In this document: positions 1-15,378 of the stretch, piece after piece | Numbering within the stretch: position 1 is the stretch's first letter | Layout: each line of letters begins with the position of its first letter | IMG/VR virus record: IMGVR_UViG_3300048080_000500 | Location: 1-15,420 of that record | Direction: 5' to 3' (one strand) | DNA: 15,420 bases | Source: a virus | Notes under the pieces: generated by a model | Databases searched by the model: none | What the model was told of the DNA's origin: nothing | Seen by the model: the letters and a program-made list of their open reading frames with translations, nothing else | Made by a program: the position numbers and the translations under genes

Positions 1-127
1 GGCACGGTACGCCTGTCCGGCGTGTCCGGCACACGGCCTCGGTCCCATCCTCGGTGCGTCGGCAGCGCACCGCCCGGCGGCGTAGCCATGGCTCACCACC
101 TCACCTGTCGTTGTTGCCGCCAGGGCC
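1..127 (+). repeat. Terminal direct repeat, copy 1 (identical to 15294-15420)
   Basis: Base-by-base comparison shows ggcacggtacgcctgtccgg...tcgttgttgccgccagggcc is identical at both ends. The length is exactly 127 nt, which is typical of a k-mer overlap left by a de Bruijn assembler on a circular or concatemeric template. The repeat lies inside coding sequence: bases 1-85 are the 3' end of ORF 15214-15378, and 88 onward is the next ORF. Confidence 0.97.
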
Positions 128-276
128 CGCCTGTGGCGGGCCCTGGCCAGGGCCGGCCGCGGTACTGCGCCCGGTGCCTGGCCGTCTGCCCATCCGGCTG
201 GCCCTGCTTCCTGCGCCATCCCCGCATCAGCCGGCACGCGTTCCCGCCGCGGCGGCCGCTCACGGAAAGGGGGTGA
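88..276 (+). CDS. Small Cys/His-rich protein, 62 aa (MAHHLTCRCCRQG...YCARCLAVCPSGWPC...)
   Basis: ATG at 88 lies 2 nt after the TAG of the preceding Cys-rich ORF, suggesting operon coupling. Motifs CxCC and CxxCxxxC are present. Same frame as track ORF 22..276, but the GTG at 22 would overlap the upstream ORF. Mild C3 codon preference, like other + strand genes. Confidence 0.45.
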   Translation: MAHHLTCRCCRQGPPVAGPGQGRPRYCARCLAVCPSGWPCFLRHPRISRHAFPPRRPLTERG

Positions 277-367
277 TCGCCGACGCAACGCCGCCACCGC
301 ACCCTACTGCACCGGATCCTAATCTGGCTACACCACCACGGAATCAGCTTGTGAAAGGAGCTACAAA

Positions 368-976
368 GTGAACGACAACGAAGCCAAAGCCATCATCACC
401 AGCGCCCAGATCTACCTCGGTCGCTACAAGCGCTCAAAGGCCGCGCTGGAAGAGGCGAAGAACACACTCGAAGAATACATGGACGACACCAACCAGGAGG
501 ACGTGGCCGGCACGTCGCCGGGTTCCGGCGCTCGCTTCGTCGAGCGCCAGAACCGCACCCTGAACCTGGAACCAATGGCGGACGAGCACATCATCTGGTG
601 CGCCAGAAACGGACTGCTCGCCCCCATCATGGGGAAGGTGGACGCGCTCGCGCAGGCCGCGCGCTCGTCGCTCCAACCGTTCATCTCACCGGCGGCAGGG
701 ACCCGGTACGTAGACTTGTACTTCCCGTCCTGGGGCAGCGCCAAGGCGCAGCCCACGGCGCAGACGGCAGCGCCACCGTCGCCGCCGCCCGTGCCCAAAC
801 CGGCACCGGCGCCCACGCCCAAGCCCGCCGTCCAACCCACCGCCTCGCTCACCTTCTGCCCAGACCACGGGAAGAGCCGCTACTCTGAGAAGTCGGGCGG
901 ACTCTACTGCCCGTCCAAACTGGACGACGGCTCTTGGTGCAAGTGGACGACGGCCACCGAAGGGAAAGCAGCCTAA
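368..976 (+). CDS. Hypothetical early protein, 202 aa: helical N-terminal domain, Pro-rich linker, C-terminal Cys/His zinc-ribbon-like motif (FCPDHG...YCPSK...WCKW)
   Basis: GTG at 368 lies 8 nt after aaaggag (353-359). Codon usage looks like real coding. The linker is APPSPPPVPKPAPAPTPKP. C/H spacing at the C-terminus fits a zinc ribbon. The N-terminus loosely resembles Gam/Gp157-type helical phage proteins, from memory only. Confidence 0.8.
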   Translation: MNDNEAKAIITSAQIYLGRYKRSKAALEEAKNTLEEYMDDTNQEDVAGTSPGSGARFVERQNRTLNLEPMADEHIIWCARNGLLAPIMGKVDALAQAARSSLQPFISPAAGTRYVDLYFPSWGSAKAQPTAQTAAPPSPPPVPKPAPAPTPKPAVQPTASLTFCPDHGKSRYSEKSGGLYCPSKLDDGSWCKWTTATEGKAA

Positions 977-977
977 G

Positions 978-1073
978 ATGGACATAACCAAGTGCGCAAT
1001 CTGTCGGCACCCATGGCACGGCCTCAAGAAGTGCCGCCAGTGCAAGTGTGGAACCGGCTGGTACGTGCGTTAG
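978..1073 (+). CDS. Mini zinc-ribbon protein, 31 aa (MDITKCAICRHPWHGLKKCRQCKCGTGWYVR)
   Basis: Hand-translated and below the track length cutoff. ATG starts 1 nt after the TAA of the upstream gene. The CxxC-x8-CxxCxC pattern is present. The RBS is weak. Confidence 0.4.
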   Translation: MDITKCAICRHPWHGLKKCRQCKCGTGWYVR

Positions 1074-1099
1074 TCTAGTACCCGTCAGCCGCCAGCGGG

Positions 1100-1132
1100 A
1101 ACCGGCGTCACTGTCAAGCGGTGGCGCCGGTT
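1100..1132. terminator. Bidirectional hairpin between convergent transcription units
   Basis: Arms aaccggcgtcac (1100-1111) and gtggcgccggtt (1121-1132) form 12 bp with one T:G position, around a 9-nt loop. It sits in the 64-nt gap between the + strand stop (1073) and the - strand endolysin stop (1138). No U-tract. Confidence 0.55.
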
Positions 1133-1137
1133 AACTT

Positions 1138-1887
1138 CTACCCCCACCAGAAACGCGGCGACCCGTACTCCGGCGACTGCGCACGGCTGTCGCCGTGGGC
1201 ATGCTTCTCGTACGCCCTGACGCCGGACAGGCCGCAGGTTTTCATCATGCCCGCGACCACGACCGGCGGCACACCGGCCACGACCACGTCAGCCGCGATC
1301 CCCCGCATGTGCATCGAGTTTCGCGCCGAGCCAGCCAGCCGCCGATTGTACACCACCGACCGGAAGCCGGACGTCACGACGACCGGCCGGCCAAGCTTCT
1401 TCCGCAACGCTTCCAGCTTGTACATCAGGCACCGCACGTTCTCGCGAGCCTCCGCAGGCGGCACCCGCCCGCCTCCAAACCCACCCGTGTCCGGGGTCAC
1501 GAACTCAGCCCACCTAAAGTTAAGTGTCCCGCGATCACCCCTCCCTAACGACCTCACCGCCGCCATCGTCTTCGGACCTACGACGCCATCACCCACCAGC
1601 CCGTACGCCCGCTGAAACCGGCGCACCGCAGCCGCGGTCGCCGGGCCCATGACGCCGTCTATCCGCAAGAACACCCTCGACGGCTTGTCCGCCGCCCAGC
1701 CAGCCACCCGCCGCTGCACTTCCTTCGGGGCCAAACGCGGAGCCGCACCCATCACAGCACCCCCAGCAAGATACCCACCCCCAACAAGAAGAGCAGCCAG
1801 GCCAACGCCATCGCGTCTACGCCCAGCTGCAACCTGTTCACGTGTACACCGCGACGACCACCGCGTCGTCGCTCTTCGTCTGGTCAA
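1138..1887 (-). CDS. Endolysin: N-terminal Gly/Ala-rich hydrophobic (SAR/signal-anchor-like) segment + PG_binding_1 domain + peptidase M15 (M15A/VanY-like zinc D-Ala-D-Ala peptidase) domain
   Basis: The PG-binding repeat is RIDGVMGPATAAAVRRFQRAYGLVGDGVVGPKTMAAV. The M15 core is VVVTSGFRSVVYNRRLAGSARNSMHMRGIAADV, matching the SGxR...N...S.H..G.A.D pattern. The hydrophobic stretch is VGLAALLVGGGYLAGGAVMGAAP. The start is uncertain: TTG at 1887 overlaps the upstream ORF by 50 nt, and the alternatives GTG 1755 / ATG 1752 would remove the hydrophobic segment. Confidence 0.88.
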   Translation of the reverse strand: MTRRRATTRWSSRCTREQVAAGRRRDGVGLAALLVGGGYLAGGAVMGAAPRLAPKEVQRRVAGWAADKPSRVFLRIDGVMGPATAAAVRRFQRAYGLVGDGVVGPKTMAAVRSLGRGDRGTLNFRWAEFVTPDTGGFGGGRVPPAEARENVRCLMYKLEALRKKLGRPVVVTSGFRSVVYNRRLAGSARNSMHMRGIAADVVVAGVPPVVVAGMMKTCGLSGVRAYEKHAHGDSRAQSPEYGSPRFWWG

Positions 1888-2056
1888 AGATTACCACCAC
1901 CACCTTACGCCCTGCAACCATGTCGCCGGCCGCAATATCGCGGCTCGTCGGCACGTTCGAAAGACTCATATGAACCGACCCGACCAGCTGCACCCGCGCT
2001 AGATAGGTGCCCGAATCGAACGCTCTGAGGATGCCAGGATGCGTCAGCGCAGCCAT
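1838..2056 (-). CDS. Hypothetical 72-aa protein, possibly a small OB-fold tail-tip/spike protein (gpV / gp138-N-like pattern)
   Basis: ATG at 2056. G-ending codon bias like the other - strand genes. The pattern GILRAFDSGTYLARVQLVGS...NVP...GDMVAGRKVVVVIFD resembles the N-terminal OB domain of baseplate spike proteins, from memory and weakly. Confidence 0.6.
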   Translation of the reverse strand: MAALTHPGILRAFDSGTYLARVQLVGSVHMSLSNVPTSRDIAAGDMVAGRKVVVVIFDQTKSDDAVVVAVYT

Positions 2057-2139
2057 CGTTGTTCACGTTTCATGCTAACAGCGGTCTCGGACAAAATCCT
2101 TCGGACACATTTTGAAGCCCTGGCCTCCTCTACGGTTCG

Positions 2140-2172
2140 AAAAAACGCTCGCCTCATCACACGCCGCCGAGC
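2140..2172 (-). terminator. Weak terminator/attenuator candidate after the 660-aa gene
   Basis: On the - strand, gcucg (2172-2168) pairs with cgagc (2151-2147), followed by g and then UUUUUU (2145-2140). This T6 run is rare in such a GC-rich genome. The stem is only 5 bp with a 16-nt loop. Confidence 0.25.
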
Positions 2173-4139
2173 TCAACGCGCTGCTCGAACACCGCTTTCC
2201 GCGACCTACCCCCCCCCCTCACAAACCGCGTCCGGACGGCCCGCACCCGGGCCTTCACCACCGTCGCCGACACCAGCGCGTCACTGTACTGGACGACGTC
2301 CCCCACCTCCATGCCGCAGTGAGGCGACGTCACCAGATACCCCCGATCACTCTCTAACACGCCCTTTCGCAACCGTGCCGCCGCATGGTCGGCGGCGTTC
2401 CCCGCCGTCACCTCATGCGGCCCACGGCGCCGATCCGCCAGCCCCTTGTTCTCGGCCATCTCCGGAAAATCAAACGCCTGGCCCAGCACGGTTCCCACCC
2501 CCACCACCTCAGCCAACGCCTCCCGCCGCTCGCGCTCGGTCCGACTCCGGTAGATGGCGTGGCCCTCAGCAACGTAATCGTAGTTCACCGCGTCAGACCC
2601 CAGCGGCTCGAACGTCCTGATCGCCGAAGCCCCAAACCCCGAATCCGGCCGAGCAACGTCCGCCATCATCGCCAGCAGCGCCTCGACAGCCGACAACGCC
2701 GACTCGAACGGATGCACCGTCCAAGCCAGAGCAAAGTTCGCCGCCCGCACACTCAAAGCCGCGTGACTCTCCTCCACACCCGCCCTCGCACAGATGCCCC
2801 GATACAGGATGCTGAACGCAAGCGTCCCCGGACTAACGGACGTGCGCGCCCGCCCACCCTCCAACCAATAATCCGCCCCCCGCGTCCTCACCACGAACAC
2901 ACTCTCGCCCCCATCCCGCCGGTACTCCCACCCGACAATCGCCTGGCCCGCTGGCCGGCTGAACAGCGCATCGTACCCCAGCCCAATGTCCACGTCCCGC
3001 CCGAGCTGGATAGGCGCGGGCGGCCCCGCCCACTGACCCCCCGCATTGTCAAACACGAACTCCCCACGCGCCCGAATCCCGTTCTCTTCGACGGTCGCTT
3101 CCACCAGGTCCGCGCTCATGTCCTTCGGCGAACCCGTCGCCACATAGGGCGCTCGGTTCACCTCAGCAGGCCGCGACGTGTAGGCGTAGGTCACGCCGTC
3201 CCCGGCCAGCGCCAGCCCGTTCGCCGCCGTGTCATCGAACGGCACCGGGTCCAGCCACTCCCAGTTGCCAGGCGAGAAAGGGTCCGCCAAATGCCGCTCG
3301 CTCCAGTAGCTCCGGTCATACGTAGGCGACCCCGTGAAACGCTCGACAAAGCTCAGCCGCGAAGCAATGTCCGGCGGCCCCAGATGCGGGGCCTTGAACA
3401 CCACAAGCTGGTCCGTCTCGGCCTGCTGCACGATGAACAACGCCGCCCACACGTCCAACGTCACCGAGAACCCCTCACCAAGAATCAGCGTCCACACCGT
3501 AGGCCGCAGCGTGCTCACCTCCGTGCCAGTCACCACGATGTTGTAGTCCCCCGAAAACTTCATCGCCATGCCCGTCAGCGTCGCCGGTCGCGGCGTCGGC
3601 ATCGCCAACCCAGCCCCGAACGCGCCCACGCCCGTTCGCCTGTACCGCGTGATGATCGAGTCGATGTCGATAATCACCACACACGTCCCCGTCGAGTCCT
3701 TGTACGCCACGCCCACGCCCGTCGGCGTAAGAATCGCAGCACTCGCGATCAGCGTCTCTGTCCCAAACGTCGCGCCCTGGTCGGCACTCTCACGAAAGTA
3801 GACCGACAGCCCCCGATTGTAGACCACGAACACCCGGGCATTGTTGACCACCGCCACGGCGATCACGTTCGTTGTCGACAAGGTGCTCAGGTCAATCCAC
3901 CCCGCACCGTAACCCCGCTCGTACTGGGGCCGCCCCGTCACCGAGTTCGCCCGAACCCGGTGCAGGTAGGTGGTGTCCGCCGCCGCGTCATGCGCGTCAT
4001 CCGCCACGAACGCCGTGAACACCTCCGAGTAGACCAGATGATTGATGCCCCGTATCCGCCCCTCGACCTCGACCCGGACGAACGGCGCACCGGACGGCGC
4101 CTTCTGAGCCGCCAGCAGCGGCGCAGACAGCGTCCTCAC
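2157..4139 (-). CDS. Large virion structural protein, 660 aa; putative tail hub / tail-spike-like protein with an Asp-box (BNR) motif
   Basis: GTG at 4139 lies 2 nt after the TAG of the upstream gene. It is the longest ORF in the genome. The Asp-box SADQGATF (SxDxGxTF) is at residues 118-125 (nt 3765-3788). The C-terminal pattern ...GMEVGDVVQYSD...VKARVRAVRTRF... resembles hub/gpD-type tail proteins, from memory. The antisense 586-aa ORF is R/P-rich junk. Confidence 0.8.
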   Translation of the reverse strand: MRTLSAPLLAAQKAPSGAPFVRVEVEGRIRGINHLVYSEVFTAFVADDAHDAAADTTYLHRVRANSVTGRPQYERGYGAGWIDLSTLSTTNVIAVAVVNNARVFVVYNRGLSVYFRESADQGATFGTETLIASAAILTPTGVGVAYKDSTGTCVVIIDIDSIITRYRRTGVGAFGAGLAMPTPRPATLTGMAMKFSGDYNIVVTGTEVSTLRPTVWTLILGEGFSVTLDVWAALFIVQQAETDQLVVFKAPHLGPPDIASRLSFVERFTGSPTYDRSYWSERHLADPFSPGNWEWLDPVPFDDTAANGLALAGDGVTYAYTSRPAEVNRAPYVATGSPKDMSADLVEATVEENGIRARGEFVFDNAGGQWAGPPAPIQLGRDVDIGLGYDALFSRPAGQAIVGWEYRRDGGESVFVVRTRGADYWLEGGRARTSVSPGTLAFSILYRGICARAGVEESHAALSVRAANFALAWTVHPFESALSAVEALLAMMADVARPDSGFGASAIRTFEPLGSDAVNYDYVAEGHAIYRSRTERERREALAEVVGVGTVLGQAFDFPEMAENKGLADRRRGPHEVTAGNAADHAAARLRKGVLESDRGYLVTSPHCGMEVGDVVQYSDALVSATVVKARVRAVRTRFVRGGGRSRKAVFEQRVELGGV

Positions 4140-4141
4140 GC

Positions 4142-4783
4142 CTAGACCGGCCCCGGATCCGTGCTCTGGCTGCGCAACCGCCTATCGTCGCCGCTATACA
4201 GCTCCCCAGTCCGCAAGGCGTTCGCCGCCGGCAGGCGCCGAAGCGCGGCCTGGAACTCTTCGAGCCGAACCTTCGCAAAGTCCATGTACCGGCCCCAGAC
4301 CTCGTTCCCGCCCACGTTCACCCGGTTACTCGCGAACGACCCCCACTCCAACGCCGCGTACCCGGCGGCGCCGCCGGAGATAATGTCATCGTGGGCCACC
4401 GAGAAGCTGCCGCTCCCGTTGATCACGTGCTCCTGGTGCCAGAGAACGTTAACGCTCTCGACCCCAGAGGGCGGCGACAGCACGTCCAGCGTCAGAATCT
4501 CACCCCACAACGCGAAGGGAGCATACTGAGGGGGGTATCGCAGCGTCGGCCACTCAGCCGCCACCACCCGGACACGCGCCGTCAGACTCGCTATCGAAAC
4601 ATCCCGCGAGCCCGCCACCGTGAACAGCCCCGTCTTCACCTCGAGCGGACTAACCTGGCTGTACTCCCGCAAGGCCCGCTTGATGTGCCGGTCAAGCACC
4701 GCGTCCACCCACCGGAACGCCGCCGCGTCCTCATCGTGCAGGTCCTTCCGAACCGCAGCTCGCAGGGTCGCTAGGTTACTCAT
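4142..4783 (-). CDS. Virion protein, 213 aa; possible head-tail adaptor/connector
   Basis: ATG at 4783 overlaps the upstream TGA (ATGA). The N-terminus MSNLATLRAAVRKDLHDEDAAAFRWVDAVLDRHIKRALREYS recalls adaptor-like proteins common in prophage structural modules, from memory only. Confidence 0.75.
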   Translation of the reverse strand: MSNLATLRAAVRKDLHDEDAAAFRWVDAVLDRHIKRALREYSQVSPLEVKTGLFTVAGSRDVSIASLTARVRVVAAEWPTLRYPPQYAPFALWGEILTLDVLSPPSGVESVNVLWHQEHVINGSGSFSVAHDDIISGGAAGYAALEWGSFASNRVNVGGNEVWGRYMDFAKVRLEEFQAALRRLPAANALRTGELYSGDDRRLRSQSTDPGPV

Positions 4784-6051
4784 CTCCTCACCGGCCGACG
4801 CGGTCTGGCGGCCGGGCGCGGCCCCCGAGGCATCGAGGGACGGCTCGGCCGCCAGGGCGCCAGGGGTCTCCCGCCCACTATATCACTCCGCCGCCCAGCC
4901 ACCACAAGAGGCGGCCCCAACCCCAAAGGCGCGGGCGGCGCAACATCAGTCGCGCCCAGCCCCACCACCACCACCCCCAGGGAACTCACGAAGATAATCA
5001 GTCCGTCGGCGTCCCGCCGGTGACCCGCCTGCAGCGCGTCAACGTCGGCCTGCCCCCACGCTCCGCCGCCAGGCTTCGTATGCCACCGAGCCGTGCGATG
5101 CGCAAACGTCTCCGGCAACGTCACGCTCCCAAAGCTCAACACGCTGTCCACGGAGGTCCGAAGCATCGCGCCGTGAACCACGAACTTCGTCACCGAGTTC
5201 GCCCGCAACCACCCCAACCAGCCAACCCCACGAATCCCGTTCACCATCGTCCGCGTGCTTAGGTGACTGGTCTGACGCTGGTTCCCAAAGTTCTGACCCT
5301 CATTCTGCCCGGCCCCGTCATCGACATCGCCCTCAGCCGCGAAATCGTCCCAATTCTTCCACTTGTCTACCGCCTCCGGCACGCCGAGATAATCGTTGTA
5401 GGTCCCCTGACCGTCAGGGTTCAGCAGCCTCATCTCCGGGTACATCGACTCGTCGAGGTCGTCGGTGTCGCTCATGAACGACATCCACGCCGACCAGAAC
5501 CGCTCCGTGCCCACAGACGCCAGCCCACACTGCATCTCAGGGAAGATCGCCACCCCTTGACCGTGCGTGGTGCTGATCGCCAGAACACCATCAACGAAGA
5601 AGTCCAGCGTCTTCCCCGCCCGCCCGTGCCTCAGACACAGCCGCCGCACAAACCCGCCAGCGAAGATACCAGAATCACCACCCAGTTGAACGTCGTTCGT
5701 CACGTCCCAGAGCCGAAACCTGAGCTCCACCCCCACCCGGTAGTACCGCACGTCCACAAGGTTCTCAACGGAGAACGCGCCAACCACGAAGGTCCTCAGC
5801 ACCACCTCGAACTGCCCGCCCGACGGCTGCCCGTTCGAGAAGTAGTACCCGAACCAGTAATCGAAACCGAACTCCGTCAGCAGGTCCGACGCGTTCGCCG
5901 CCGACCCCACGCCGGACATCGCAGTGCTGCTGTACTTCGCCCAGCCATGATCGCCCGCCGCAACACCAGTACGCTCCGGCGTCATGTTCGACGGGTACAA
6001 CTTCGGTCCCGACAGGACGCAAGGCCACTGGCCGACATCTAGCTGCGCCAC
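4780..6051 (-). CDS. Virion structural protein, 423 aa (beta-rich, aromatic-rich; possible tail or receptor-binding protein) with a Pro/Arg-rich C-terminal tail
   Basis: GTG at 6051 follows ggtgg by 7 nt and overlaps the upstream gene by 13 nt. An alternative ATG at 5985 has no RBS. G-ending codon bias. No recognisable catalytic motif. Confidence 0.75.
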   Translation of the reverse strand: MAQLDVGQWPCVLSGPKLYPSNMTPERTGVAAGDHGWAKYSSTAMSGVGSAANASDLLTEFGFDYWFGYYFSNGQPSGGQFEVVLRTFVVGAFSVENLVDVRYYRVGVELRFRLWDVTNDVQLGGDSGIFAGGFVRRLCLRHGRAGKTLDFFVDGVLAISTTHGQGVAIFPEMQCGLASVGTERFWSAWMSFMSDTDDLDESMYPEMRLLNPDGQGTYNDYLGVPEAVDKWKNWDDFAAEGDVDDGAGQNEGQNFGNQRQTSHLSTRTMVNGIRGVGWLGWLRANSVTKFVVHGAMLRTSVDSVLSFGSVTLPETFAHRTARWHTKPGGGAWGQADVDALQAGHRRDADGLIIFVSSLGVVVVGLGATDVAPPAPLGLGPPLVVAGRRSDIVGGRPLAPWRPSRPSMPRGPRPAARPRRPVRR

Positions 6052-9843: not shown

Positions 9844-9861
9844 CTTCCGTCACACGGGCAA

Positions 9862-9907: not shown

Positions 9908-9927
9908 GCCCACCAACTCCTCCTGCC

Positions 9928-10050
9928 ATGAACGACGCCACGCTCCTACTCCCCGGCTGGGCCATCGCGCTCGGCATCTACCTCTTCGGACTCGCCCTCG
10001 GCTTCTACTGGGGGCGCTGCTGGCCCAAAGGAGACGACAACCATGAGTGA
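9928..10050 (+). CDS. Small membrane protein, 40 aa (MNDATLLLPGWAIALGIYLFGLALGFYWGRCWPKGDDNHE)
   Basis: Hand-translated. One TM helix and strong C-ending codon bias like the + strand genes. It overlaps the next ORF by 8 nt. No SD upstream. Confidence 0.45.
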   Translation: MNDATLLLPGWAIALGIYLFGLALGFYWGRCWPKGDDNHE

Positions 10051-10222
10051 CTTCCTCTTCGACCTACGCTTCCTCACCGGCTTCGGCCTGATCGCCTTCC
10101 TCACCGGCGTCGGGACCGGCTGCGTCATCATGTACCTCGATCGCCACATCTCGCCCATCGCTTCCCCCCACTTCCACTACACCCCACCCAGCCGGAAAAA
10201 GAACACCCGCCTACACCCTTGA
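10043..10222 (+). CDS. Small membrane protein, 59 aa (MSDFLFDLRFLTGFGLIAFLTGVGTGCVIMYLDRH…), holin/pinholin or exclusion-protein candidate
   Basis: Hand-translated. ATG lies 9 nt after aaggag (10028-10033). One TM helix followed by a basic C-terminus. C-ending codon bias. Confidence 0.6.
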   Translation: MSDFLFDLRFLTGFGLIAFLTGVGTGCVIMYLDRHISPIASPHFHYTPPSRKKNTRLHP

Positions 10223-10247
10223 CACACCAGAGCCGCCCTGCTACGCT
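10219..10247 (+). promoter_or_regulatory. Promoter candidate for the head operon: TTGACA-17 nt-TACGCT, positioned for a leaderless transcript
   Basis: A consensus -35 (10219-10224), a 17-nt spacer and a TANNNT-type -10 (10242-10247), then exactly 7 nt to ATG 10255. That ATG has no SD. Confidence 0.35.
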
Positions 10248-10254
10248 GTCGTCG

Positions 10255-10677
10255 ATGCCTGACATAACCGACGAACAGCTCGCCGCACTGCAAGCCAGGG
10301 CCGAAGCAGGCGACTCCGCAGCCGCCGCCCTCGAGGAAACCCAGCAGCGCCTCCAAGCCGCCACCGAAGCGACCCTCGAGCAGGCCCGCGCAGCCAACCC
10401 GACCATCCCCGCCGTCCTGATCACCGGCGCCACCGCCGACGAGATCGCGGCCTCGATTCTCACCGCACAGACCATCGTCACAGAAGCAGTGACCCTCAAC
10501 CCACCCACACCATCGACGCCGGACGCGGCGGTCACGTCGCCTCCTAGCGCGCCCGCCGCTCCGGTCGTCCCCACCAACCAAGCCACATCCCCACCCCGCG
10601 CACCAGCGCCCCCGCCCGAAGGCACACGCGGCTTCGACCGCATCAGCGCTGGCATCGCCGCCCTCACCAAGGAGTAA
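10255..10677 (+). CDS. Scaffolding protein candidate, 140 aa
   Basis: It lies immediately upstream of the major capsid gene. It has an Ala/Glu/Gln-rich helical N-terminus (DEQLAALQARAEAGDSAAAALEETQQRLQAATEATLEQARA), a Pro-rich middle and a short C-terminal helix. I prefer the ATG at 10255 over the track TTG at 10219, which I read as a -35 box. Confidence 0.55.
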   Translation: MPDITDEQLAALQARAEAGDSAAAALEETQQRLQAATEATLEQARAANPTIPAVLITGATADEIAASILTAQTIVTEAVTLNPPTPSTPDAAVTSPPSAPAAPVVPTNQATSPPRAPAPPPEGTRGFDRISAGIAALTKE

Positions 10678-10680
10678 CCC

Positions 10681-11646
10681 ATGGCCCTCACCCTCGCCGA
10701 AGCCGACAAGTACAGCACCAACCAGGTCCTCGTCGGCGTCGCCGAGATAACGATGGACGCGAACCCCTTCCTGGGCCTGATGCCCTTCGTGCCCGTCCGA
10801 GGCAACGCGCTCCAATACCAGCGCGAACTCGCCGCCGGCCTACCGACCTTCATCGCCCCAGGCGGCACCGTGGTCGAAGCCGTACCCACCACCAGCCTCA
10901 TCACCACCGCCCTCAAGATTCTCATCGGCGACGCCGACATCGACAAGTTCCTTCGCATCACACGCTCGAAAGACCAAGACCTCCAGGCCGAACTACTGTC
11001 GATGAAGGCGCGCAACTTCGCCGACACCTGGGGCGACGCCGCCATCTACGGCAGCATCGACGTCAGCGCGAACGAGTTCGACGGAGTCCACCAGATTATC
11101 CAGGACGACATCACCCTCCAGCAGGTACACGCGGGCGCCACCACCATCCCAGGCGCGGGCAGCTTCTCGCTGCTCGACCAACTCATCGACCTCGTGCGGC
11201 CCCGCCCCACCGTCCTACTCGCCAGCCGCCGCAGCATCAGGGGCATCCAACAACTCGCCCGCTCGCAGGGCTGGGACCTGGCCCTCTCGACCATGCAGGG
11301 CATCAGCCGCCCGGTGCGCTTCTACAGCGACATCCCCATCCTGCCGGCCGACTTCATCACCGACACCGAGACCATCACCGCAGGGGAATTCCTCGCCAAG
11401 ACAGGCGGCACCGCGTCGACCATCTTCGCCGCCCGCCTCGACGAGACCGGCCTCTTCGGCATCTCCGCCGACGACCCGGAAGCCCAGGACGACCTCGAAC
11501 GAATCATCCAAGTCGAGCGCGTCGGCACCCTCGAGACCCGCGACGCCAACCGCTGGCGCCTCAAATCCTACACCGCCCTCTGCGTCAAGGCATCACAAGC
11601 GCTCGCCCGCCTCGACGGCATCTCTTCCGCCCCCTGGACGAACTGA
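10681..11646 (+). CDS. Major capsid protein (HK97-fold family), 321 aa
   Basis: ATG lies 6 nt after aaggag (10669-10674). Its size and its position between scaffold and portal fit. The N-terminal pattern LTLAEADKYS…GVAEI…PFL.LMPF…GNALQYQRE and the …KILIGDADID.F… block match capsid proteins I recall from scaffold-dependent podo/sipho-type phages. Confidence 0.75.
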   Translation: MALTLAEADKYSTNQVLVGVAEITMDANPFLGLMPFVPVRGNALQYQRELAAGLPTFIAPGGTVVEAVPTTSLITTALKILIGDADIDKFLRITRSKDQDLQAELLSMKARNFADTWGDAAIYGSIDVSANEFDGVHQIIQDDITLQQVHAGATTIPGAGSFSLLDQLIDLVRPRPTVLLASRRSIRGIQQLARSQGWDLALSTMQGISRPVRFYSDIPILPADFITDTETITAGEFLAKTGGTASTIFAARLDETGLFGISADDPEAQDDLERIIQVERVGTLETRDANRWRLKSYTALCVKASQALARLDGISSAPWTN

Positions 11647-11648
11647 CC

Positions 11649-11834
11649 GTGGCTGGCGTCTACTGCGCCCGATGCCTCACCAACGTCAAGCTCGAACAAG
11701 ACGGCCAGTCGTGCTCGAACTGCGGCGCCACGCTCGTCGGCCCACCACCGCCGCCGCCGCCCGCACCCAGCGACAAGCCACCCCGCAAACCCGCTCGAAA
11801 GGCCCATCCCTCACCGGCGCCCGCCCCAGCCTGA
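11649..11834 (+). CDS. Zinc-ribbon + poly-Pro protein, 61 aa (CARC-x12-CSNC then PPPPPPPAPSDKPPRKP…)
   Basis: GTG lies 2 nt after the capsid TGA. It has the classic CxxC…CxxC ribbon and sits between the capsid and portal genes. Confidence 0.6.
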   Translation: MAGVYCARCLTNVKLEQDGQSCSNCGATLVGPPPPPPPAPSDKPPRKPARKAHPSPAPAPA

Positions 11835-11863
11835 GACCGGCGGCGCCCACCAGGTAAGCCGCC

Positions 11864-13186
11864 ATGCCTGAAGCCCCACTCCCGAAACAACTCCAATCCC
11901 GCGACCGAGAACGCATCACCCGCTACCAAACCCTGCTCGCCTTCTACAACGGCGACCAGTGGCCCGCCAAACGCACCGACCGCCGCCGACAGCTCACCCT
12001 CAACTACGCCCGCACGTTCGCGCACACCGCGACCGCCGCCCTCATGAAGGGGCGCACCGTCACGGTCGAACCCACCGACGACTCCGACGCCGCCACCGAT
12101 CGCGCCGCCGAGACCGAGGTCGCCATCAACCAGGTCTGGCGTCACAACGGCCTCGAGGCGCTCGACTTCGATACCGAACTCGACTGTGCCGTGCTCGGCG
12201 ACGCCGCCTACAAGGTCTGGTGGGACCCGGACGCCCAACAGGTCCGCGTCACCGCCCCCGACCCATCGGGCATCTTCGCCTGGTGGCTCCCAACCGACCC
12301 GTCCCGCTTCTGGCGCATCGCCAACCGCTACGCCCTCGACGGCGACGACGCGGCCGCGCTCTTCCCCGGCCTCACCCTCCTACGACGCAACACCATCATC
12401 GAGGCGTGGACGCTGGACATGTACGAACTCTGGCTGAACGACACGCTCGTCGACGCCCGCCCCAACCCCTACCCCTTCATCCCGTTCGTCATCTTCCCCA
12501 ACGTGCGCGACCCCCAGCAGGTCTGGGGCACGTCCGACCTGCAACCGCTCCTCGACATCCTTCGCGAACTCAACCGCGAAGTGACCCAGCTCTCGTACAT
12601 CATGGAACTCAGCGGCAACCCCATCGCCGTCCTCGAAGGCGTAGACGAAGCGCAGGACATCGCCGTCAAGCCCGGCACCGTCTGGGAGCTACCCAAAGAC
12701 GCCAAGGCGTACCTCCTCGACCTCCTACGCGGAGGCGGCGTCAAGCTACACACCGACTTCTTGCAGGCCCTCTACCGCGGCCTACACGACCTGGCCGAGA
12801 CGCCGCGCTCAGCGTTCGGCGACATCAACCGCGACCTGTCCGGCGTCGCACTCGAACTCGAACTCGACCCGCTCGTCAGGAAGATAGACCGCAAGCGCCT
12901 CATTCGCACCACCGCCTACACCCAGCGCAACGACATGATTCTCGCCCTGCTCGACACCTTCGCCGGCACCAGCTTCGGCCCGACGAACAACACCATCGCC
13001 TGGGGCAGCGTCCTCCCGACCGACCGCGACCGCCAGGTGCAACACGAAACGCTGCTCACCCAAGCAGGCATCCACTCCCGCCGCTTCGCCGCCGACGAAC
13101 TGGGCGACGTCGACGACCCCGACGCCGAGTTCGCCCGCTGGCTCGAAGAACAACGCCAGCTCACCCCACCCACCACACCCCCGTGA
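11864..13186 (+). CDS. Portal protein, 440 aa
   Basis: Its size and its position directly upstream of and overlapping TerL fit. Portal-like blocks are present (…LNYARTF…, …ELDCAVLGDAAYKVWWD…, …NPYPFIPFVIFPN…WGTSDL…LNREV…). Confidence 0.8.
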   Translation: MPEAPLPKQLQSRDRERITRYQTLLAFYNGDQWPAKRTDRRRQLTLNYARTFAHTATAALMKGRTVTVEPTDDSDAATDRAAETEVAINQVWRHNGLEALDFDTELDCAVLGDAAYKVWWDPDAQQVRVTAPDPSGIFAWWLPTDPSRFWRIANRYALDGDDAAALFPGLTLLRRNTIIEAWTLDMYELWLNDTLVDARPNPYPFIPFVIFPNVRDPQQVWGTSDLQPLLDILRELNREVTQLSYIMELSGNPIAVLEGVDEAQDIAVKPGTVWELPKDAKAYLLDLLRGGGVKLHTDFLQALYRGLHDLAETPRSAFGDINRDLSGVALELELDPLVRKIDRKRLIRTTAYTQRNDMILALLDTFAGTSFGPTNNTIAWGSVLPTDRDRQVQHETLLTQAGIHSRRFAADELGDVDDPDAEFARWLEEQRQLTPPTTPP

Positions 13187-14565
13187 CCCGCAACGGCGTC
13201 CACCCCGGCCTCGTCAAGCTGCGGCCATACCAGACCGCCATCGGTCGCGCCATCCTCAACAGCATCACAAACCGCCACGGCCTCACCTTCACCGTCGAGA
13301 TGTCACGCCAGTCCGGCAAGAACGAGCTGTCCGCCCAACTCGAAGCCACGCTCCTGTCCCACTTCGCCCACACCACCTTTGCTGGCGAACCCTTCTCGCT
13401 CATCAAAGCGGCGCCCACGTTCAGCCCCCAGACCCAAATATCGATCCGCCGCCTCAAAGACACGCTCCGCACCGCCAACGTCCCCCACGCCACCGACGCC
13501 GGCCACATCATTCGCATCGGCCACGCCCGGGCCATCTTCCTCAGCGCCGAGCCGAACGCGAACGTCGTCGGCCACACGGCCAACCCGCTCCTCGAGATCG
13601 ACGAGGCCCAAGACATCGACATCGAGAAGTTCGACAAAGAGTTCCGCCCGATGGCCGCGCACTTCAACGCCACCACCGTCCTCTACGGCACCCCCTGGTC
13701 TGAACTCGACCTACTCCACCGCGAACGCCGCGCCGCCCTCGACCTCGAAGCGCACGACAACGTCCACCGGGCATGGGCCGTACCCTGGCCCATCGCCGCC
13801 GCCGAGAACCCCGCCTACCATGCCTTCGTCACCGGCGAACGCTCCCGACTCGGCCCCACCCACCCATCCTTCACCACCCAGTACGACCTCATACCACTCC
13901 CTTCCGCCGGTCGCCTCTTCAGCCCCGACAACCTAGCCCAACTCGCAGGCGACTTCCCCCGGCGCAGAACCCCACCACCCGCAGCCACCATCGCCGCCGG
14001 GCTCGACATCGCAGGCGGCTCCGACGCGGCGCCCGACGCCCACGACCGCACCGTCCTGACGCTCGCCGCCGTCTCGCTCCCATCACCCGCCGACCCCATC
14101 CCTGCTAACCACATCGCCGTCCTTCACCAGGTCGCCTGGCAAGGCGAGCAACACGAACGTCTGCTACCCCAGCTGCTCGACCTCATCAACAACGTCTGGA
14201 AGCCCGCCGCCCTCACCATCGACGCAACCGGCATCGGCGAGACCACAGCCCGCATCCTCACAGCCCGCTCGCCCCGTACCATCGTCAACCCCTACAAGTT
14301 CACCCGCCCCTCCAAGTCCGCCCTCGCCTACGACGTCCTGACCGCCGTCACCACCGGCCGCCTCAAGCTCTACGAACCCGACGGCTCCGACGAATCGACC
14401 ACCTGCTGGAACGAACTACGCGCCGCCCGCGCAGACTACCTACCCGGCCAGCTCATCAACTTCTACGTCGACCCGACCGACGGCCACGACGACTACCTCA
14501 TCTCCCTCTCTCTCGCCGTCCACGCTGCGAACCAGGCCACGCCGCGAATCGCCCGCGGCCGCTAG
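13183..14565 (+). CDS. terL: Terminase large subunit, 460 aa
   Basis: GTG at 13183 overlaps the portal TGA (GTGA). Motifs: Walker A-like SRQSGKNE, Walker B LLEIDEAQD, coupling motif LYGTPW, and RNase-H-like nuclease acidic motifs GLDIAGG, TIDATGIGE, GHDDYLISL. The upstream 408 codons of track ORF 11959..14565 are out-of-frame overlap with the portal gene. Confidence 0.9.
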   Translation: MTRNGVHPGLVKLRPYQTAIGRAILNSITNRHGLTFTVEMSRQSGKNELSAQLEATLLSHFAHTTFAGEPFSLIKAAPTFSPQTQISIRRLKDTLRTANVPHATDAGHIIRIGHARAIFLSAEPNANVVGHTANPLLEIDEAQDIDIEKFDKEFRPMAAHFNATTVLYGTPWSELDLLHRERRAALDLEAHDNVHRAWAVPWPIAAAENPAYHAFVTGERSRLGPTHPSFTTQYDLIPLPSAGRLFSPDNLAQLAGDFPRRRTPPPAATIAAGLDIAGGSDAAPDAHDRTVLTLAAVSLPSPADPIPANHIAVLHQVAWQGEQHERLLPQLLDLINNVWKPAALTIDATGIGETTARILTARSPRTIVNPYKFTRPSKSALAYDVLTAVTTGRLKLYEPDGSDESTTCWNELRAARADYLPGQLINFYVDPTDGHDDYLISLSLAVHAANQATPRIARGR

Positions 14566-14624
14566 CCAACGCCCTACCCCCTCACACCCGCGCACCACGC
14601 CGCCGCCCTTCCACTCGCTCGGCC

Positions 14625-14670
14625 GGCCCGGCCAGCATCTACGACACGGCGCCCTTCGGGTGGCCGGGCC
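14625..14670 (+). terminator. Inverted repeat/stem-loop downstream of terL
   Basis: ggcccggcca (14625-14634) and tggccgggcc (14661-14670) form a perfect 10-bp inverted repeat with a 26-nt loop. The loop contains a nested ccc-ttc-ggg hairpin. It starts 60 nt after the terL stop. No U-tract. Confidence 0.35.
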
Positions 14671-15213
14671 CCCGCCGTCGCTCGCTCACGGGCGCTGCGG
14701 CGCCCGCGTCGGCGTCGTGCGCTCACGCCCACGCGAGGCCAGCGGCGCGTGCGTTCGAGCGGTTACGGCTGCGGCTTCCTCCTCGCACTCCGTCGGCTCA
14801 CGCCGCCGTTCGGCAGGCGCACCACCAGCCCAGCCGCGCACGCTAGCGCCCCGCGTACGACCGCTGCTGCGGCCCCACGGCGGCGCCTACGGCCCCGCAA
14901 CCCGTACAAACGACCGATTCTACCCGCACTCGGTTCGTTTCCCTCATTTCGCGCCTTCTTCAACTCACCCCCCCGCCGCGCGCTTCTCATTTTAGCCCGC
15001 CCGCAAATGGCCTCTGCACGGGTTTCCCGCTGGCTGGGATCACCGGCCCGCCCCTGGCATTATCGCCTTCTTGCGGGCTGCGCCCCTGGTAGGCGGGCCG
15101 GCGCTGCCCCGCCGCGTTTGCCCCGTTGCGGCCAGCCTTGCGGGCGGGCTATGTCCGCCGCGTCCGGCGGGCGGCCTTGGGGCTGTCGGGGCAGGTTCAG
15201 AAAGGGGTCTCAC

Positions 15214-15378
15214 ATGTCTCGCTGTTCCTCTTGCGGCATCCAGGGGTGCATGCTCCTGGCCCGGCCCTGCCGGTGTTGCCTGTCTTGCTGGCAGGCACGG
15301 TACGCCTGTCCGGCGTGTCCGGCACACGGCCTCGGTCCCATCCTCGGTGCGTCGGCAGCGCACCGCCCGGCGGCGTAG
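15214..15378 (+). CDS. Small Cys-rich protein, 54 aa (MSRCSSCGIQGCMLLARPCRCCLSCWQARYACPACP...), possible eight-Cys cross-brace/RING-like Zn binder
   Basis: ATG at 15214 follows gaaagggg (15200-15207) by 6-7 nt. Nine Cys fall in the first 35 residues, including CxxC pairs at both ends. It is the C-terminal part of track ORF 14749..15378, whose upstream part is R/A/P-rich junk. Its stop lies 2 nt before the next ATG (position 88 in circle coordinates). GC3 is only moderate, so coding status is not certain. Confidence 0.45.
   Translation: MSRCSSCGIQGCMLLARPCRCCLSCWQARYACPACPAHGLGPILGASAAHRPAA

Follow-up and report, generated by a model that had tools for sequence, protein, structure and literature searches.

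Genome organization

The DNA analysed here (hereafter the window, 15,420 nt) is a complete genome of about 15.3 kb; the tailed phage to which it belongs is uncultured and comes from an environmental lineage with high GC. Its first 127 nt recur unchanged at 15294-15420, so that the sequence closes on itself as a unit of 15,293 bp; terminal overlaps were also found in the relatives L002 (127 nt) and L058 (123 nt). About 26 genes are backed by GC3 periodicity, the largest window ORF having 660 aa (Table 1). A first-pass annotation had placed 27-30 genes in 15.3 kb and described a near-minimal tailed-phage-like genome; the length is confirmed by the overlap and the description is borne out by the closure and by the head, short-tail, lysis and integrase/attP genes.

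Table 1. Features of the 15,420-nt window, with the evidence for each
Feature	Position	Strand	Evidence or description
Terminal overlap	1-127		identical to 15294-15420; circularly closing assembly
Cys-rich ORF, 62 aa	88-276	+	in-frame GC3 0.80-0.90
202-aa protein, candidate DNA-binding or initiation protein	368-976	+	~125-aa N-domain, Pro-rich linker, C-terminal CHCC zinc finger
Endolysin, M15 peptidase and peptidoglycan-binding domain	1138-1887	-	PF08291 2e-17, PF01471 1e-11, phrog_894 2e-21
72-aa domain protein, after hub	1838-2056	-	orthologues in 24 loci
Distal tail protein, 660 aa	2157-4139	-	predicted N-terminal BNR/Asp-box beta-propeller and C-terminal gp27/Mu gp44/VgrG-type hub
Head-to-tail adaptor, SU10-adaptor-like, 213 aa	4142-4783	-	PF24175 4.5e-5
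423-aa protein	4780-6051	-	candidate receptor-binding/fibre protein
163-aa protein, tail block	6039-6530	-	coding periodicity
47-aa membrane protein	6531-6674	-	sequence
TerS, small terminase subunit	6671-7069	-	motif GxQPxNxNAxKHGxY; phrog matches of orthologues
74-aa helical protein	7011-7235	-	conserved; first of two conserved leftward-operon genes
53-aa membrane protein	7259-7420	-	sequence, periodicity
~100-nt conserved element	7440-7555		abuts tRNA-like 3' end; conserved in window and three relatives (L002, L010, L045)
attP candidate, tRNA-Pro(GGG)-like remnant	7571-7634	-	anticodon arm, T arm, acceptor 3' strand; no D arm
Sigma-70-like promoter match	7724-7752	+	TTGACA-17-TAACAT; sole match in window
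Early protein, ~141-151 aa	7793-8248	+	first rightward-operon gene; motifs RLxRWLE, WRxEIxSPAxxL
Imperfect palindrome	7845-7925		inside 5' part of the early gene; conserved
126-aa protein, two zinc ribbons	8319-8699	+	sequence
Tyrosine recombinase (integrase)	8696-9634	+	PF00589 2e-23; phrog_1 3e-42
70-aa protein	9631-9843	+	homologue in L002
Two small membrane proteins, 40 and 59 aa	9928-10222	+	sequence, periodicity
Putative scaffolding protein	10219-10677	+	directly upstream of MCP; Ala/Glu-rich; 32-56% conserved in relatives
Major capsid protein (MCP), HK97-fold	10681-11646	+	phrog_212 9e-46
61-aa zinc-ribbon protein	11649-11834	+	conserved downstream of MCP
Portal	11864-13186	+	PF05133 7e-25; phrog_64 6e-35
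TerL, large terminase subunit	13186-14565	+	phrog_5909 4e-5
Gene-poor region	14566-15213		~72% GC, no codon periodicity, downstream of TerL
Cys-rich ORF, 54 aa, 9 Cys	15214-15378	+	preceded by GAAAGGGG; spans assembly junction

More than 50 uncultured relatives are present among metagenome contigs, with at least four gene arrangements, and their upper length limit of 14-17 kb shows that the small size is genuine and usual for the lineage. Independent samples repeatedly yield contigs of 13.8-16.9 kb; one of 20.2 kb corresponds to about 1.35 units and one of 30.7 kb to two variant genomes in tandem, and none longer than these is known for close relatives. The first-pass annotation had considered a temperate, integrase-bearing element of this size with a full head module unusual; the size by itself stands out less, since DTR contigs between 11.6 and 20 kb are reported in IMG/VR by the thousand, with hundreds carrying HK97 capsid genes (bioRxiv 10.1101/2025.06.18.659913). 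Comparison with 50,697 deposited phages gave no DNA match to a cultured phage and protein identities of at most 33%, the MCP included. For these reasons, together with the uncultured relatives, a new lineage fits best among the three identities first offered. Host labels taken from MAGs conflict, being Binatia, Chloroflexi or Gemmatimonadales.

Searches of all window ORFs against Pfam, PHROGs, NCBIfam and PDB profiles identified no polymerase, primase, helicase, Rep or partition protein, no CI/Cro repressor or Xis and no prohead protease; no tape-measure or tube protein was matched in the window or in the ORFs of relatives. The same families (replication, partition, CI/Cro, Xis, tape measure, protease) were absent from about 115 unassigned ORFs of relatives, and no HUH Rep motif was found in the search for one. 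These results agree with the first-pass annotation, which had recognised none of these functions, and neither a hidden replication module nor a repressor came to light.

Head and packaging genes

Of the scaffold, HK97-type capsid, portal and TerL genes proposed earlier as the head module, the last three were upheld by the profile matches of MCP and portal and by the terminase match of TerL, which is 30% identical over 95% of its length (3e-42) to the terminase of Bacillus phage vB_BboS-125. The scaffolding protein matched no family in profile searches and is proposed from its position and composition. TerS, which was missing from the first-pass list, is newly recognised: six of eight orthologues match phrog_1889 and five of eight phrog_370, both annotated as terminase small subunit (best E 1.2e-7), and its true start is probably near 7009. 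A small HK97-type capsid built from scaffold, MCP, portal, TerS and TerL without a protease is well supported. Short-tailed phages that use a scaffold, such as T7, P22 and phi29, normally have no prohead protease.

Tail and lysis genes

The adaptor scores 24.4 bits against PF24175, under the gathering score of 27, and its orthologue in L060 matches the same family at E <=1e-5. The gene always lies directly upstream of that of the 660-aa protein, and the pair is kept directly after the capsid gene clade-wide, including the integrase-less members examined. The 660-aa protein has 383 representative homologues, and its AF2 model (pLDDT 94.5, pTM 0.91) shows a beta-propeller joined to a hub of the gp27/Mu gp44 type. 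Foldseek matched the model in the PDB to 7aef_q (4e-16), 1wru (2e-13) and 3d37 (TM 0.71-0.73) and in BFVD to 'Phage protein D' and '43 kDa tail protein'; sialidase-type propellers were matched at 1e-4.

The 72-aa domain, which had no match in PDB or Pfam, forms in six relatives the N-terminus of fused proteins of 300-430 aa and probably serves to anchor a spike or fibre. The 423-aa protein has no relative in any family member, and its position and variability point to a probable role in receptor binding or as a fibre; its last ~60 codons are Pro/Arg-rich, with indistinct periodicity. No profile match was obtained for the 163-aa protein. Of the four large virion proteins claimed at first, the adaptor and the propeller-hub protein are verified, the latter by the structure search, whereas these last two are without family match.

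A very short tail, without tube or tape measure, is well supported, in which an SU10-type adaptor would carry a trimeric gp27-type hub with its beta-propeller, followed by a small spike/fibre domain and the lineage-specific receptor-binding protein. No structural precedent was found for a hub-type tip placed directly on an adaptor. The short-tailed virion suggested earlier is consistent with the presence of adaptor and hub, the lack of a tape-measure match and the size of the largest ORF. Lysis is accomplished by the small membrane proteins and the endolysin, whose assignment to M15 stands (Peptidase_M15_3 and PG_binding_1 domains) and whose true start is probably near 1755.

Integrase and candidate attachment site

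The integrase, whose gene precedes those of the head within the rightward operon, has its motifs legible in the sequence: R (ARLGE), HxxR (HLLRH) and H...Y (LGHSDISTTRIY). The tRNA-Pro(GGG)-like remnant (7574-7634, minus strand; 23.7 bits, gathering score 29) is conserved over 44-50 nt at 84-91% in five relatives whose proteins are just 35-50% identical, and one of these, L005, has a full tRNA-Pro(GGG). L002 carries at the same place a tRNA-Gly(CCC)-like remnant, beside an integrase 42% identical. The adjoining conserved element is possibly a terminator or regulatory structure. By eye, the 70-aa protein encoded after the integrase may be ribbon-helix-helix-like; it had no profile matches.

The integrase and attP candidate of the first-pass annotation are thus well founded, and it is from these two that the phage had been called temperate. 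Against that call, the search for integrated copies found none of the close family in ~60 contigs (IMG/VR, JGI metagenomes, GTDB genomes, ENA, Logan), all of them <=16.9 kb or concatemers, and an integrase homologue is missing in several members, as well as in all three complete or near-complete wider-clade genomes examined (two of them near-identical). One sub-clade, which includes the window genome, has probably acquired a tyrosine-integrase/attP cassette whose target is a tRNA gene in its 3' half, in this case tRNA-Pro(GGG), and since the cassette is aimed in this way the phage can probably lysogenise.

Early genes and candidate origins

The 202-aa protein, a core gene of the clade, is a candidate DNA-binding or replication-initiation protein. 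Its finger has the pattern C-x2-H-x13-C-x9-C-x-W. It had no family or PDB match, just three word-index homologues and an unusable AF2 model (pLDDT 46). The finger resembles GRF-type ssDNA-binding fingers by eye only, Pfam and PDB profiles giving no support. Two Cys-rich ORFs were added to the first-pass list, one (54 aa) without a Pfam match and the other (62 aa) 38% identical to an ORF of L045. The gene-poor region preceding them may act as an origin or in packaging; it contains an imperfect hairpin of ~160 nt (14993-15151; 14/14 outer stem; fold z-score -3.4, minus strand), and a gap of 1-1.5 kb lies at the equivalent place in six relatives.

The early protein of the rightward operon, a candidate regulator or initiator, has orthologues in five relatives and beyond these no homologue or family match in database and profile searches. 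The palindrome inside its gene, a candidate operator or origin, is the lowest-GC spot of the genome and holds all three TCAGATC sites of the window; five orthologous regions fold as hairpins (z -3.1 to -5.9), with none of 200 shuffles as good. The sigma-70-like match is one against 1.0 expected by chance, and weak alone.

Strand asymmetry and replication

On the plus strand GC skew is about -0.12 to -0.35 in every 1-kb bin and AT skew is positive throughout; the skew is uniform, yet genes at 1138-7420 and 7793-14565 lie on opposite strands. Four-fold sites give a plus-strand skew between -0.38 and -0.71 for 13 of 15 genes, regardless of the coding strand, the only genes without it being the candidate early genes (368-976 and 7793-8248). 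Streptomyces phage Rowa, one of the cultured phages with the closest MCP (32.5% identical), differs in having values of -0.06 to +0.13. Among MCP orthologues the four-fold skew is bimodal (-0.86 to -0.28 in 44 loci, +0.22 to +0.52 in 9), and it is uniform in each of the gene arrangements. Only the orientation of the zinc-finger gene goes with its sign (13/13 by tblastn; 19/19 by motif, every time on the C-rich strand), a link that reflects few independent rearrangements, with flips only in L005 and L011; for MCP, portal, TerL, TerS, integrase and tail genes, both orientations with respect to the skew are found.

Skew is related in principle to replication and single-strand exposure (PMC2804667). 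No switch of sign was seen within the genome, which rules out bidirectional theta replication. The skew and its flips with the zinc-finger gene suggest unidirectional or rolling-circle-like replication with an unrecognised initiator. Most likely, a phage initiator of unrecognised fold would recruit the host replisome, and the circle would be copied in a single direction, either by unidirectional theta or in a rolling-circle/strand-displacement mode. The window's minus strand would then pass through a single-stranded state time after time, and G+T would become enriched in it. The strongest candidate for the module comprises the gene-poor region with its long hairpin and the operon of the two Cys-rich ORFs and the zinc-finger protein; the alternative is the early protein with its GATC-bearing palindrome. 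The roles given to these candidate proteins are putative.

Autonomy, lifestyle and initiation

On the whole we favour, as a reasonably probable reading, an autonomous uncultured short-tailed phage of 15.3 kb with an integrase cassette and one-directional replication by an unrecognised initiator. A capsid-forming satellite (cf-PICI/P4 type), as had been considered earlier, would have its own small capsid and need a helper to supply replication functions as well as the tube and tape measure that its tail lacks. Small size, integrase and lack of recognisable replication genes would suit it, as would a hub fold usually seen at the end of a tube that is built on a tape measure, with neither gene present. 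We nevertheless regard it as very unlikely, because the phage itself encodes adaptor, hub, endolysin and small membrane proteins, which with the spike-like domain and the variable receptor-binding-like protein make a full exit-and-entry kit; moreover, the adaptor-hub pair persists in integrase-less members and no co-occurring helper-type relative was seen. Tail and lysis genes are reportedly missing from known cf-PICIs, which have a primase/Rep. A lytic or episomal (plasmid-like) phage, with the recombinase as an Xer/Cre-like multimer resolver and the tRNA-like sequence as a relic, is unlikely. It would agree with the failure to find integrated copies, repressor or excisionase, with the integrase placed inside the rightward operon and with the integrase-less relatives, but conservation of the tRNA 3'-half-like sequence far exceeds that of the flanking genes, and the different one in L002 is the pattern expected of a functional attP matched to the host tRNA. 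In addition, capsid and adaptor genes of a distant relative sit within a 27.5-kb bacterial contig, and the missing junction contigs count for little, because assemblies are usually broken at att sites when free and integrated forms coexist in a population.

The remaining possibility is that there is no initiator and host functions suffice, the skew arising from a cause other than replication, for instance a strand-specific deaminase, DNA modification or one-strand damage during packaging or ejection. Total reliance on host replication had been put forward in the first-pass annotation and is unproven; the conserved zinc-finger module and the replication-type asymmetry make an unrecognised initiator likelier, and we hold the host-only explanation to be highly improbable. 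No replication family was matched in any profile search and the skew exceeds typical replication skews, both of which it would accommodate. Nevertheless, DnaA boxes form no cluster (one match, 1.5 expected by chance), and a G+T-rich strand opposite a C+A-rich one is the classical signature of single-strand exposure (PMC2804667). The sign also tracks one conserved gene and the adjoining gene-poor region through rearrangements, and because TerL, TerS and portal lie in both orientations to the skew, a cis-acting origin fits better than a packaging effect.

Genome organization and related sequences

The first 127 nucleotides of the window are repeated exactly at its end, so that the assembly closes into a circle of 15,293 bp, with a G+C content of 67%. 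About 26 genes of the window are backed by third-codon-position G+C periodicity, and the features discussed here are collected in the table.

Positions of the features of the window
Feature	Position	Strand	Remark
Terminal repeat	1-127, 15294-15420		exact
Short rightward operon spanning the assembly junction	15214-15378, 88-276, 368-976	+	three ORFs
Zinc-finger protein gene	368-976	+	202 aa, C-terminal CHCC finger
Leftward gene block	1138-7420	-	
Tiny predicted membrane proteins	1755-1883, 6531-6674, 7259-7420	-	
Tiny predicted membrane proteins	9928-10222	+	
Protein after the hub	1838-2056		72 aa
Hub	2157-4139	-	660 aa
Adaptor	4142-4783	-	213 aa, predicted
Protein without relatives	4780-6051		423 aa
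Pro/Arg-rich end of the preceding ORF	4780-4960		last ~60 codons
Protein without assigned function	6039-6530		163 aa
Small terminase	6671-7069		
Conserved element	7440-7555		~100 nt
tRNA-Pro(GGG)-like remnant	7571-7634	-	attP candidate
Rightward gene block	7793-14565	+	
First gene of the rightward operon	7793-8248	+	candidate regulator or initiator
Imperfect palindrome	7845-7925		80-100 nt
Gene-poor region	14566-15213		downstream of TerL
Imperfect hairpin	14993-15151		~160 nt
Cys-rich or zinc-ribbon proteins or domains	15214-15378, 88-276, 857-946, 8319-8699, 11649-11834		five, separate

Capsid-based searches retrieved 17 IMG/VR loci, 36 JGI metagenome loci (several of them on contigs already counted under IMG/VR), one GTDB MAG contig and more than 140 protein clusters. 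The close relatives, with capsids 65-83% identical, reach a maximum of 13.8-16.3 kb and the members of the wider clade, with capsids 45-50% identical, have an upper size of 15.5-16.9 kb; the circle of L002 closes with a 127-nt overlap and that of L058, from the wider clade, with a 123-nt overlap. Because close and more distant relatives top out alike, and some of them close on themselves, the small size is a trait of the lineage and not the result of a truncated contig. That the window is an incomplete contig or an assembly artefact is ruled out by its terminal overlap and by the recurrence of this size in many independent contigs. Small contigs of 11.6-20 kb with direct terminal repeats (DTR) and HK97 capsids are common in IMG/VR (bioRxiv 10.1101/2025.06.18.659913), and the size alone is therefore only moderately surprising.

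Two contigs are longer than one unit. One of 20.2 kb (L024/L042) holds 1.35 units of two variants, 90-93% identical, with a period of ~14.9 kb, and another of 30.7 kb (L056) holds two different variants in tandem, head-to-tail. Such joins could have arisen when strains were co-assembled around a circle, or the contigs could be genuine concatemers or tandem copies. The MAG labels found on relatives conflict with each other (Binatia, Chloroflexi and Gemmatimonadales).

Membership in an already described cluster of small phages was checked against 50,697 deposited phage genomes, and no close member was found. No DNA match to the window was obtained among them by megablast; the capsid, portal and terminase share 22-33% identity with proteins of phages of 33-117 kb, and for the hub, the zinc-finger protein and the 7793-8248 protein the same set gave no match. 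A near-identical member of a described phage cluster is thus ruled out, with no DNA match and a protein identity of at most 33%, and no description of this lineage was found in the literature. The window represents an uncultured lineage of minimal short-tailed phages, probably of family-level rank. Its unusual traits are a tubeless tail tip of hub type, the lack of recognisable replication and immunity genes, and an extreme, invertible strand asymmetry. Tail, integrase and head blocks are inverted between the window, L002, L005 and L011, giving at least four arrangements.

Head, packaging and lysis

The integrase, HK97-type capsid, portal, TerL and M15 endolysin that the first-pass annotation had read from the sequence were all confirmed by profile or homology searches. 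The HK97-fold major capsid protein matches phrog_212 (9e-46) and, by tblastn, annotated capsid proteins (3e-32), and the portal matches PF05133 (7e-25). The large terminase has weak PHROG matches and aligns over 95% of its length, at 30% identity, with an annotated terminase (3e-42), and PHROG small-terminase families are matched by six of eight orthologues of the small terminase (best E 1.2e-7). Two features of Caudoviricetes, an HK97-fold capsid and a portal together with a large terminase, are found in the window. The absence of a prohead protease is ordinary in short-tailed phages that use a scaffold.

The endolysin is composed of an M15 peptidase domain and a PG_binding_1 domain. Five tiny predicted membrane proteins are encoded in the window, one of them overlapping the stretch upstream of the endolysin, and some of them are presumably holin- or spanin-like.

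The tail

The protein encoded at 4142-4783 is predicted to be SU10-adaptor-like: it scores 24.4 bits with PF24175 (SU10_adaptor) against a gathering score of 27, and its orthologue in L060 has a precomputed match to the same family with E at most 1e-5. The gene that always directly follows it encodes the 660-aa hub, with 383 representative homologues. An AlphaFold2 model of the hub made from a 75-sequence alignment (pLDDT 94.5, pTM 0.91) has a BNR/Asp-box beta-propeller as its N-terminal half, while its C-terminal ~340 residues (~320-660) adopt the baseplate-hub fold of gp27, Mu gp44, P2 gpD and VgrG. Foldseek E values for this half range from 4e-16 to 1e-9, with TM scores of 0.6-0.74 relative to hub-only targets of ~310-390 residues; examples are 7aef_q (4e-16), 1wru (2e-13) and 3d37 (TM 0.71-0.73), and matches in BFVD carry names such as 'Phage protein D' and '43 kDa tail protein'. 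Hubs of the gp27/Mu gp44/VgrG type come first among the top Foldseek matches of the model, followed by beta-propellers, and no nozzle or knob of the T7 gp12, P22 gp10 or phi29 gp9 type is found among its 50 best PDB matches. The PDB sequence-profile search of the hub gave nothing significant except propeller motifs.

The 72-aa protein encoded after the hub corresponds to the N-terminal domain of proteins of 300-430 aa in relatives, which suggests an anchor for a spike or fibre; that it is a spike domain with the OB fold of gpV or gp5 was considered and found no Pfam or PDB support. The 423-aa protein encoded at 4780-6051 has no counterpart in the other family members, which is what a receptor-binding protein would show, and no family assignment. 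The end of this ORF is Pro/Arg-rich and its codon periodicity changes frame there; the ORF may have an earlier true stop, a frameshift or an overlapping small gene. Searches assigned no function to the 163-aa protein encoded next to it.

A tail in the form of a stub, made of portal, adaptor, hub and spike, is most likely. This reading of the gene content draws on the lack of any ORF large or similar enough for a tape measure, tube or sheath: none of these had a family match in the window, where the largest ORF is of 660 aa, or among ~115 unassigned ORFs from relatives. A fold of the hub type usually sits at the end of a tube as its cap. With T4 gp27, Mu gp44, P2 gpD, VgrG and the N-terminal domain of siphophage Tal the window shares the fold of residues ~320-660; however, the hubs of long-tailed phages and contractile injection systems cap a tube built on a tape measure, neither of which the window has, and its own hub has a BNR-type propeller fused to the N-terminus and is encoded directly after the adaptor. 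The tails of podophage SU10 (Kuravirus) and of T7-like phages have what is predicted to be the same adaptor family, with a large propeller-bearing distal tail protein encoded by the next gene, but the distal protein of the window is not a homologue of T7 gp12 or of the SU10 nozzle, its C-terminal half resembles a trimeric hub, and the genome of the window is ~3-5 times smaller. No documented precedent for a hub placed directly on an adaptor was found in the literature.

Relation to known small phages and satellites

The first-pass annotation had left three identities open, a mini-podovirus, a capsid-forming satellite and a new lineage. With the small podoviruses of the phi29, Cp-1, P68 and C1 type (Salasmaviridae, Rountreeviridae and similar groups, 16-20 kb) the window shares the size class, an HK97-fold capsid with scaffold and without protease, and a portal with a very short tail and no tape measure. 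Those phages are lytic and have linear genomes, with a family-B polymerase primed by a terminal protein, and they package by means of a pRNA or an encapsidation ATPase. The window, in contrast, has TerS and TerL, a circularly closing genome, an integrase with an attP candidate and, where those phages have a knob, a gp27-type hub. No ORF had a polymerase match in Pfam, PHROGs or NCBIfam, and the lack of a protein-primed polymerase with its terminal protein rules this type out.

Capsid-forming satellites (cf-PICIs) are similar to the window in that they span 10-15 kb, encode an integrase and have HK97 capsid, portal and terminase genes of their own. They have no tail or lysis genes and they carry a replication module (primase or Rep), whereas the window has a predicted adaptor, a hub and an endolysin and no match to primase or Rep, and a satellite of this kind is unlikely on both counts. 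By its defining features the window is not a member of any cultured phage cluster either. Functionally the window is a tailed phage and, as we judge it, very probably an autonomous one; the explanation as a whole seems to us somewhat more probable than its contrary. If true, ~26 genes in 15 kb suffice for a capsid, packaging, a stub tail built from a hub, lysis and integration, knowledge that would help in engineering minimal phages and in modelling how capsids and tails evolve.

Search for replication and regulation genes

The earlier remark that replication and immunity genes could not be recognised holds under sequence-profile methods (Pfam, PHROGs, NCBIfam and PDB profiles). No polymerase, primase, helicase, Rep, partition or CI/Cro family was matched by the ORFs of the window in Pfam, PHROGs and NCBIfam, and PDB profile searches of the alignments of candidate early proteins gave no replication or CI/Cro family. 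Nothing significant was obtained in PDB sequence-profile searches of the zinc-finger protein, its zinc-finger domain, TerS, the 7793-8248 protein and the 72-aa domain. No family match to an HUH-type Rep endonuclease was found in the window or in the ORFs of relatives, and DnaA boxes do not occur in the window above chance.

One explanation, that a replication gene is kept in relatives and was lost in the window, was rejected: the pooled scans of ~115 unassigned ORFs of relatives gave no such gene and no replication, partition or CI/Cro family, returning only lysins, LysM, zinc ribbons, TerS, one DnaJ and one HTH_23. A word-index search for homologues found three relatives for the zinc-finger protein and none for the 7793-8248 protein, and the AlphaFold2 model of the former from its 3-sequence alignment was unusable (pLDDT 46). 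The lineage is a recurrent environmental phage clade with a replication system that is invisible to current profiles.

Strand asymmetry

One of the unusual characteristics of the window is its strand composition. C and A are in excess on the plus strand in all 1-kb bins, with a GC skew of -0.12 to -0.35 and an AT skew that is positive throughout, mostly ~+0.2, and although half of the genes lie on each strand the skew is uniform. At four-fold degenerate sites, 13 of 15 genes have a plus-strand GC skew between -0.38 and -0.71; codons ending in C are preferred 2-6:1 in plus-strand genes and codons ending in G 2-5:1 in minus-strand genes. As a control we used Streptomyces phage Rowa, an actinophage of 61% GC whose capsid (32.5% identical) is among the most similar from cultured phages, and in which the four-fold GC skew is -0.06 to +0.13. 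The bias at synonymous sites is thus ~10 times that of an ordinary actinophage. Such strand-wise G- or C-rich codons, along with the gene-poor GC-rich region, could mislead gene callers and host predictors.

The capsid orthologues are bimodal in this respect, with a skew of -0.86 to -0.28 in 44 loci and of +0.22 to +0.52 in nine and almost none near zero, the sign being taken relative to the capsid gene. Since the skew is uniform in each of at least four gene arrangements (the window, L002, L005 and L011) and independent of the coding strand, the bias is mutational, strand-wide, independent of transcription and without polarity switch. Four-fold skew is absent only in the zinc-finger gene (-0.05) and in the 7900-8248 part of the first gene of the rightward operon (-0.03); these two genes may be recent acquisitions or may lie next to the origin.

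A polarity switch is expected of bidirectional theta replication, by which theta replicons can be told from rolling-circle replicons (principle: PMC2804667). The window has the one-sign asymmetry without polarity switch of rolling-circle replicons. Enrichment of one strand in G+T classically points to exposure of that strand in single-stranded form. From the one-sign asymmetry without a switch and from the G+T-rich strand we infer a unidirectional or rolling-circle/strand-displacement-like replication, on the basis of composition only. Animal mitochondria and rolling-circle replicons serve as a model of the asymmetry only: they share a one-sign bias over the whole genome, strongest at synonymous sites and independent of the coding strand, but there is no homology to them, no HUH Rep was detected in the window, and the likeness in mechanism is drawn from composition. 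Asymmetry of the mitochondrial type reverses when the control region is inverted.

Candidate origin and initiator

The bias offers a handle on the location of the origin and initiator, since its sign tracks the zinc-finger gene and the adjacent non-coding region. Only the zinc-finger gene has a fixed orientation with respect to the skew, lying on the C-rich strand in 13 of 13 loci found by tblastn and in all 19 found by motif, which include the distant genomes of 16.5-16.9 kb, while the capsid, portal, terminase, integrase and tail genes occur in both orientations; this argument is based on few independent inversions. Ahead of the zinc-finger gene there is in every case a gene-poor stretch of 0.65-1.5 kb together with small ORFs, which are Cys-rich in the window and in L045. 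Cys-rich or zinc-ribbon sequences, as whole proteins or as domains, are found at five separate places in the window. The gene-poor region contains an imperfect hairpin with a 14/14 perfect outer stem and nested inner stems, and the corresponding region of L004, L010 and L056 also has long-range inverted repeats, whose sequence is not conserved.

The CHCC finger of the zinc-finger protein, C-x2-H-x13-C-x9-C-x-W, is a core domain of the whole clade and is joined to one of two alternative N-terminal domains, of ~125 aa in the window or of ~60 aa with the motif 'DYPFSVSSKF..GTEHLVTIRG'. By eye only, the finger resembles the ssDNA-binding GRF fingers; no family member matched the zf-GRF profile, and the PDB profile search of a 14-sequence finger alignment gave nothing relevant.

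The gene-poor region with the zinc-finger gene is where the origin might be, and the zinc-finger protein would then be a new type of initiator acting on the adjacent hairpin-bearing non-coding region. We regard the proposed replication mode and module as tentative, and rather doubtful than probable. The fuller picture, of a minimal tailed-phage clade with strand-asymmetric unidirectional replication, a new CHCC initiator, a mitochondria-like signature that flips with an inverted origin module and a gp27-type hub docked on an adaptor, is in our opinion unlikely to be correct in all its parts.

A second candidate for the origin is the palindrome in the 5' part of the first gene of the rightward operon, which is the spot of lowest GC in the genome and lies just downstream of the only match to a sigma-70-like promoter in the window. 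All three TCAGATC sites of the window fall in this palindrome, and palindromy, not sequence, is kept in five lineages, including L002, L010, L016 and L045 (z -3.1 to -5.9).

Integration and possible lysogeny

The tyrosine integrase matches PF00589 (2e-23, model positions 2-170 of 172) and phrog_1 (3e-42), and its catalytic motifs can be read in the sequence as R (ARLGE), HxxR (HLLRH) and H...Y (LGHSDISTTRIY). About 1 kb upstream of int lies a sequence like the 3' half of tRNA-Pro(GGG). This remnant lacks the D arm, which is the shape expected of an attP, and its score of 23.7 bits is below the gathering score of 29; Rfam at its gathering threshold gave no match in the window. The 'tRNA-Thr' that ARAGORN places at 7571-7661 was re-read as this remnant, an attP candidate and not a tRNA gene. 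In five relatives it is 84-91% conserved over 44-50 nt, whereas their proteins are only 35-50% identical. At the equivalent site L005 has a full tRNA-Pro(GGG) and L002 (730-800) a tRNA-Gly(CCC)-like remnant beside an integrase 42% identical to that of the window, which looks like a swap of integration specificity. Conservation together with swapping is the pattern shown by functional attP sites that target tRNA genes.

A conserved element common to the window, L002, L010 and L045 abuts the 3' end of the tRNA-like attP candidate, and in relatives it has a hairpin motif of the GCC-TTCG-GG type. It could act as a terminator once the tRNA gene is reconstituted, or function as a regulatory RNA.

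The integrase-bearing sub-clade is probably temperate. No repressor or excisionase was recognised, with no HTH or CI/Cro match in the window in Pfam, PHROGs and NCBIfam, and the HTH_23 match was in one single relative. The search for integrated copies that had been proposed found none of the close family in any collection searched. Four close relatives (L023, L029, L034 and L035, capsids 76-80% identical) have no homologue of the integrase of the window, and no match to an integrase domain was found in L058 or in L060 and its near-identical copy L061, from the wider clade. Upstream of TerL an unassigned ORF of ~270-340 aa is present in L029 (175-1200) and L035 (1118-1930), and L034 has one of 223 aa (4330-4998); none of these has a Pfam match.

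A distant partial relative, L057 (capsid 47% and adaptor 45% identical), lies inside a bacterial contig of 27.5 kb. Its positions 1-5400 carry scaffold, capsid, adaptor and M23 peptidase genes beside ordinary bacterial genes and a gene with an eCIS_core domain; no hub gene follows the adaptor, and the contig end cuts off the left side, where the portal and terminase would be placed. L057, in which the GC skew is absent (-0.07 to +0.05), may be a decayed or domesticated prophage.
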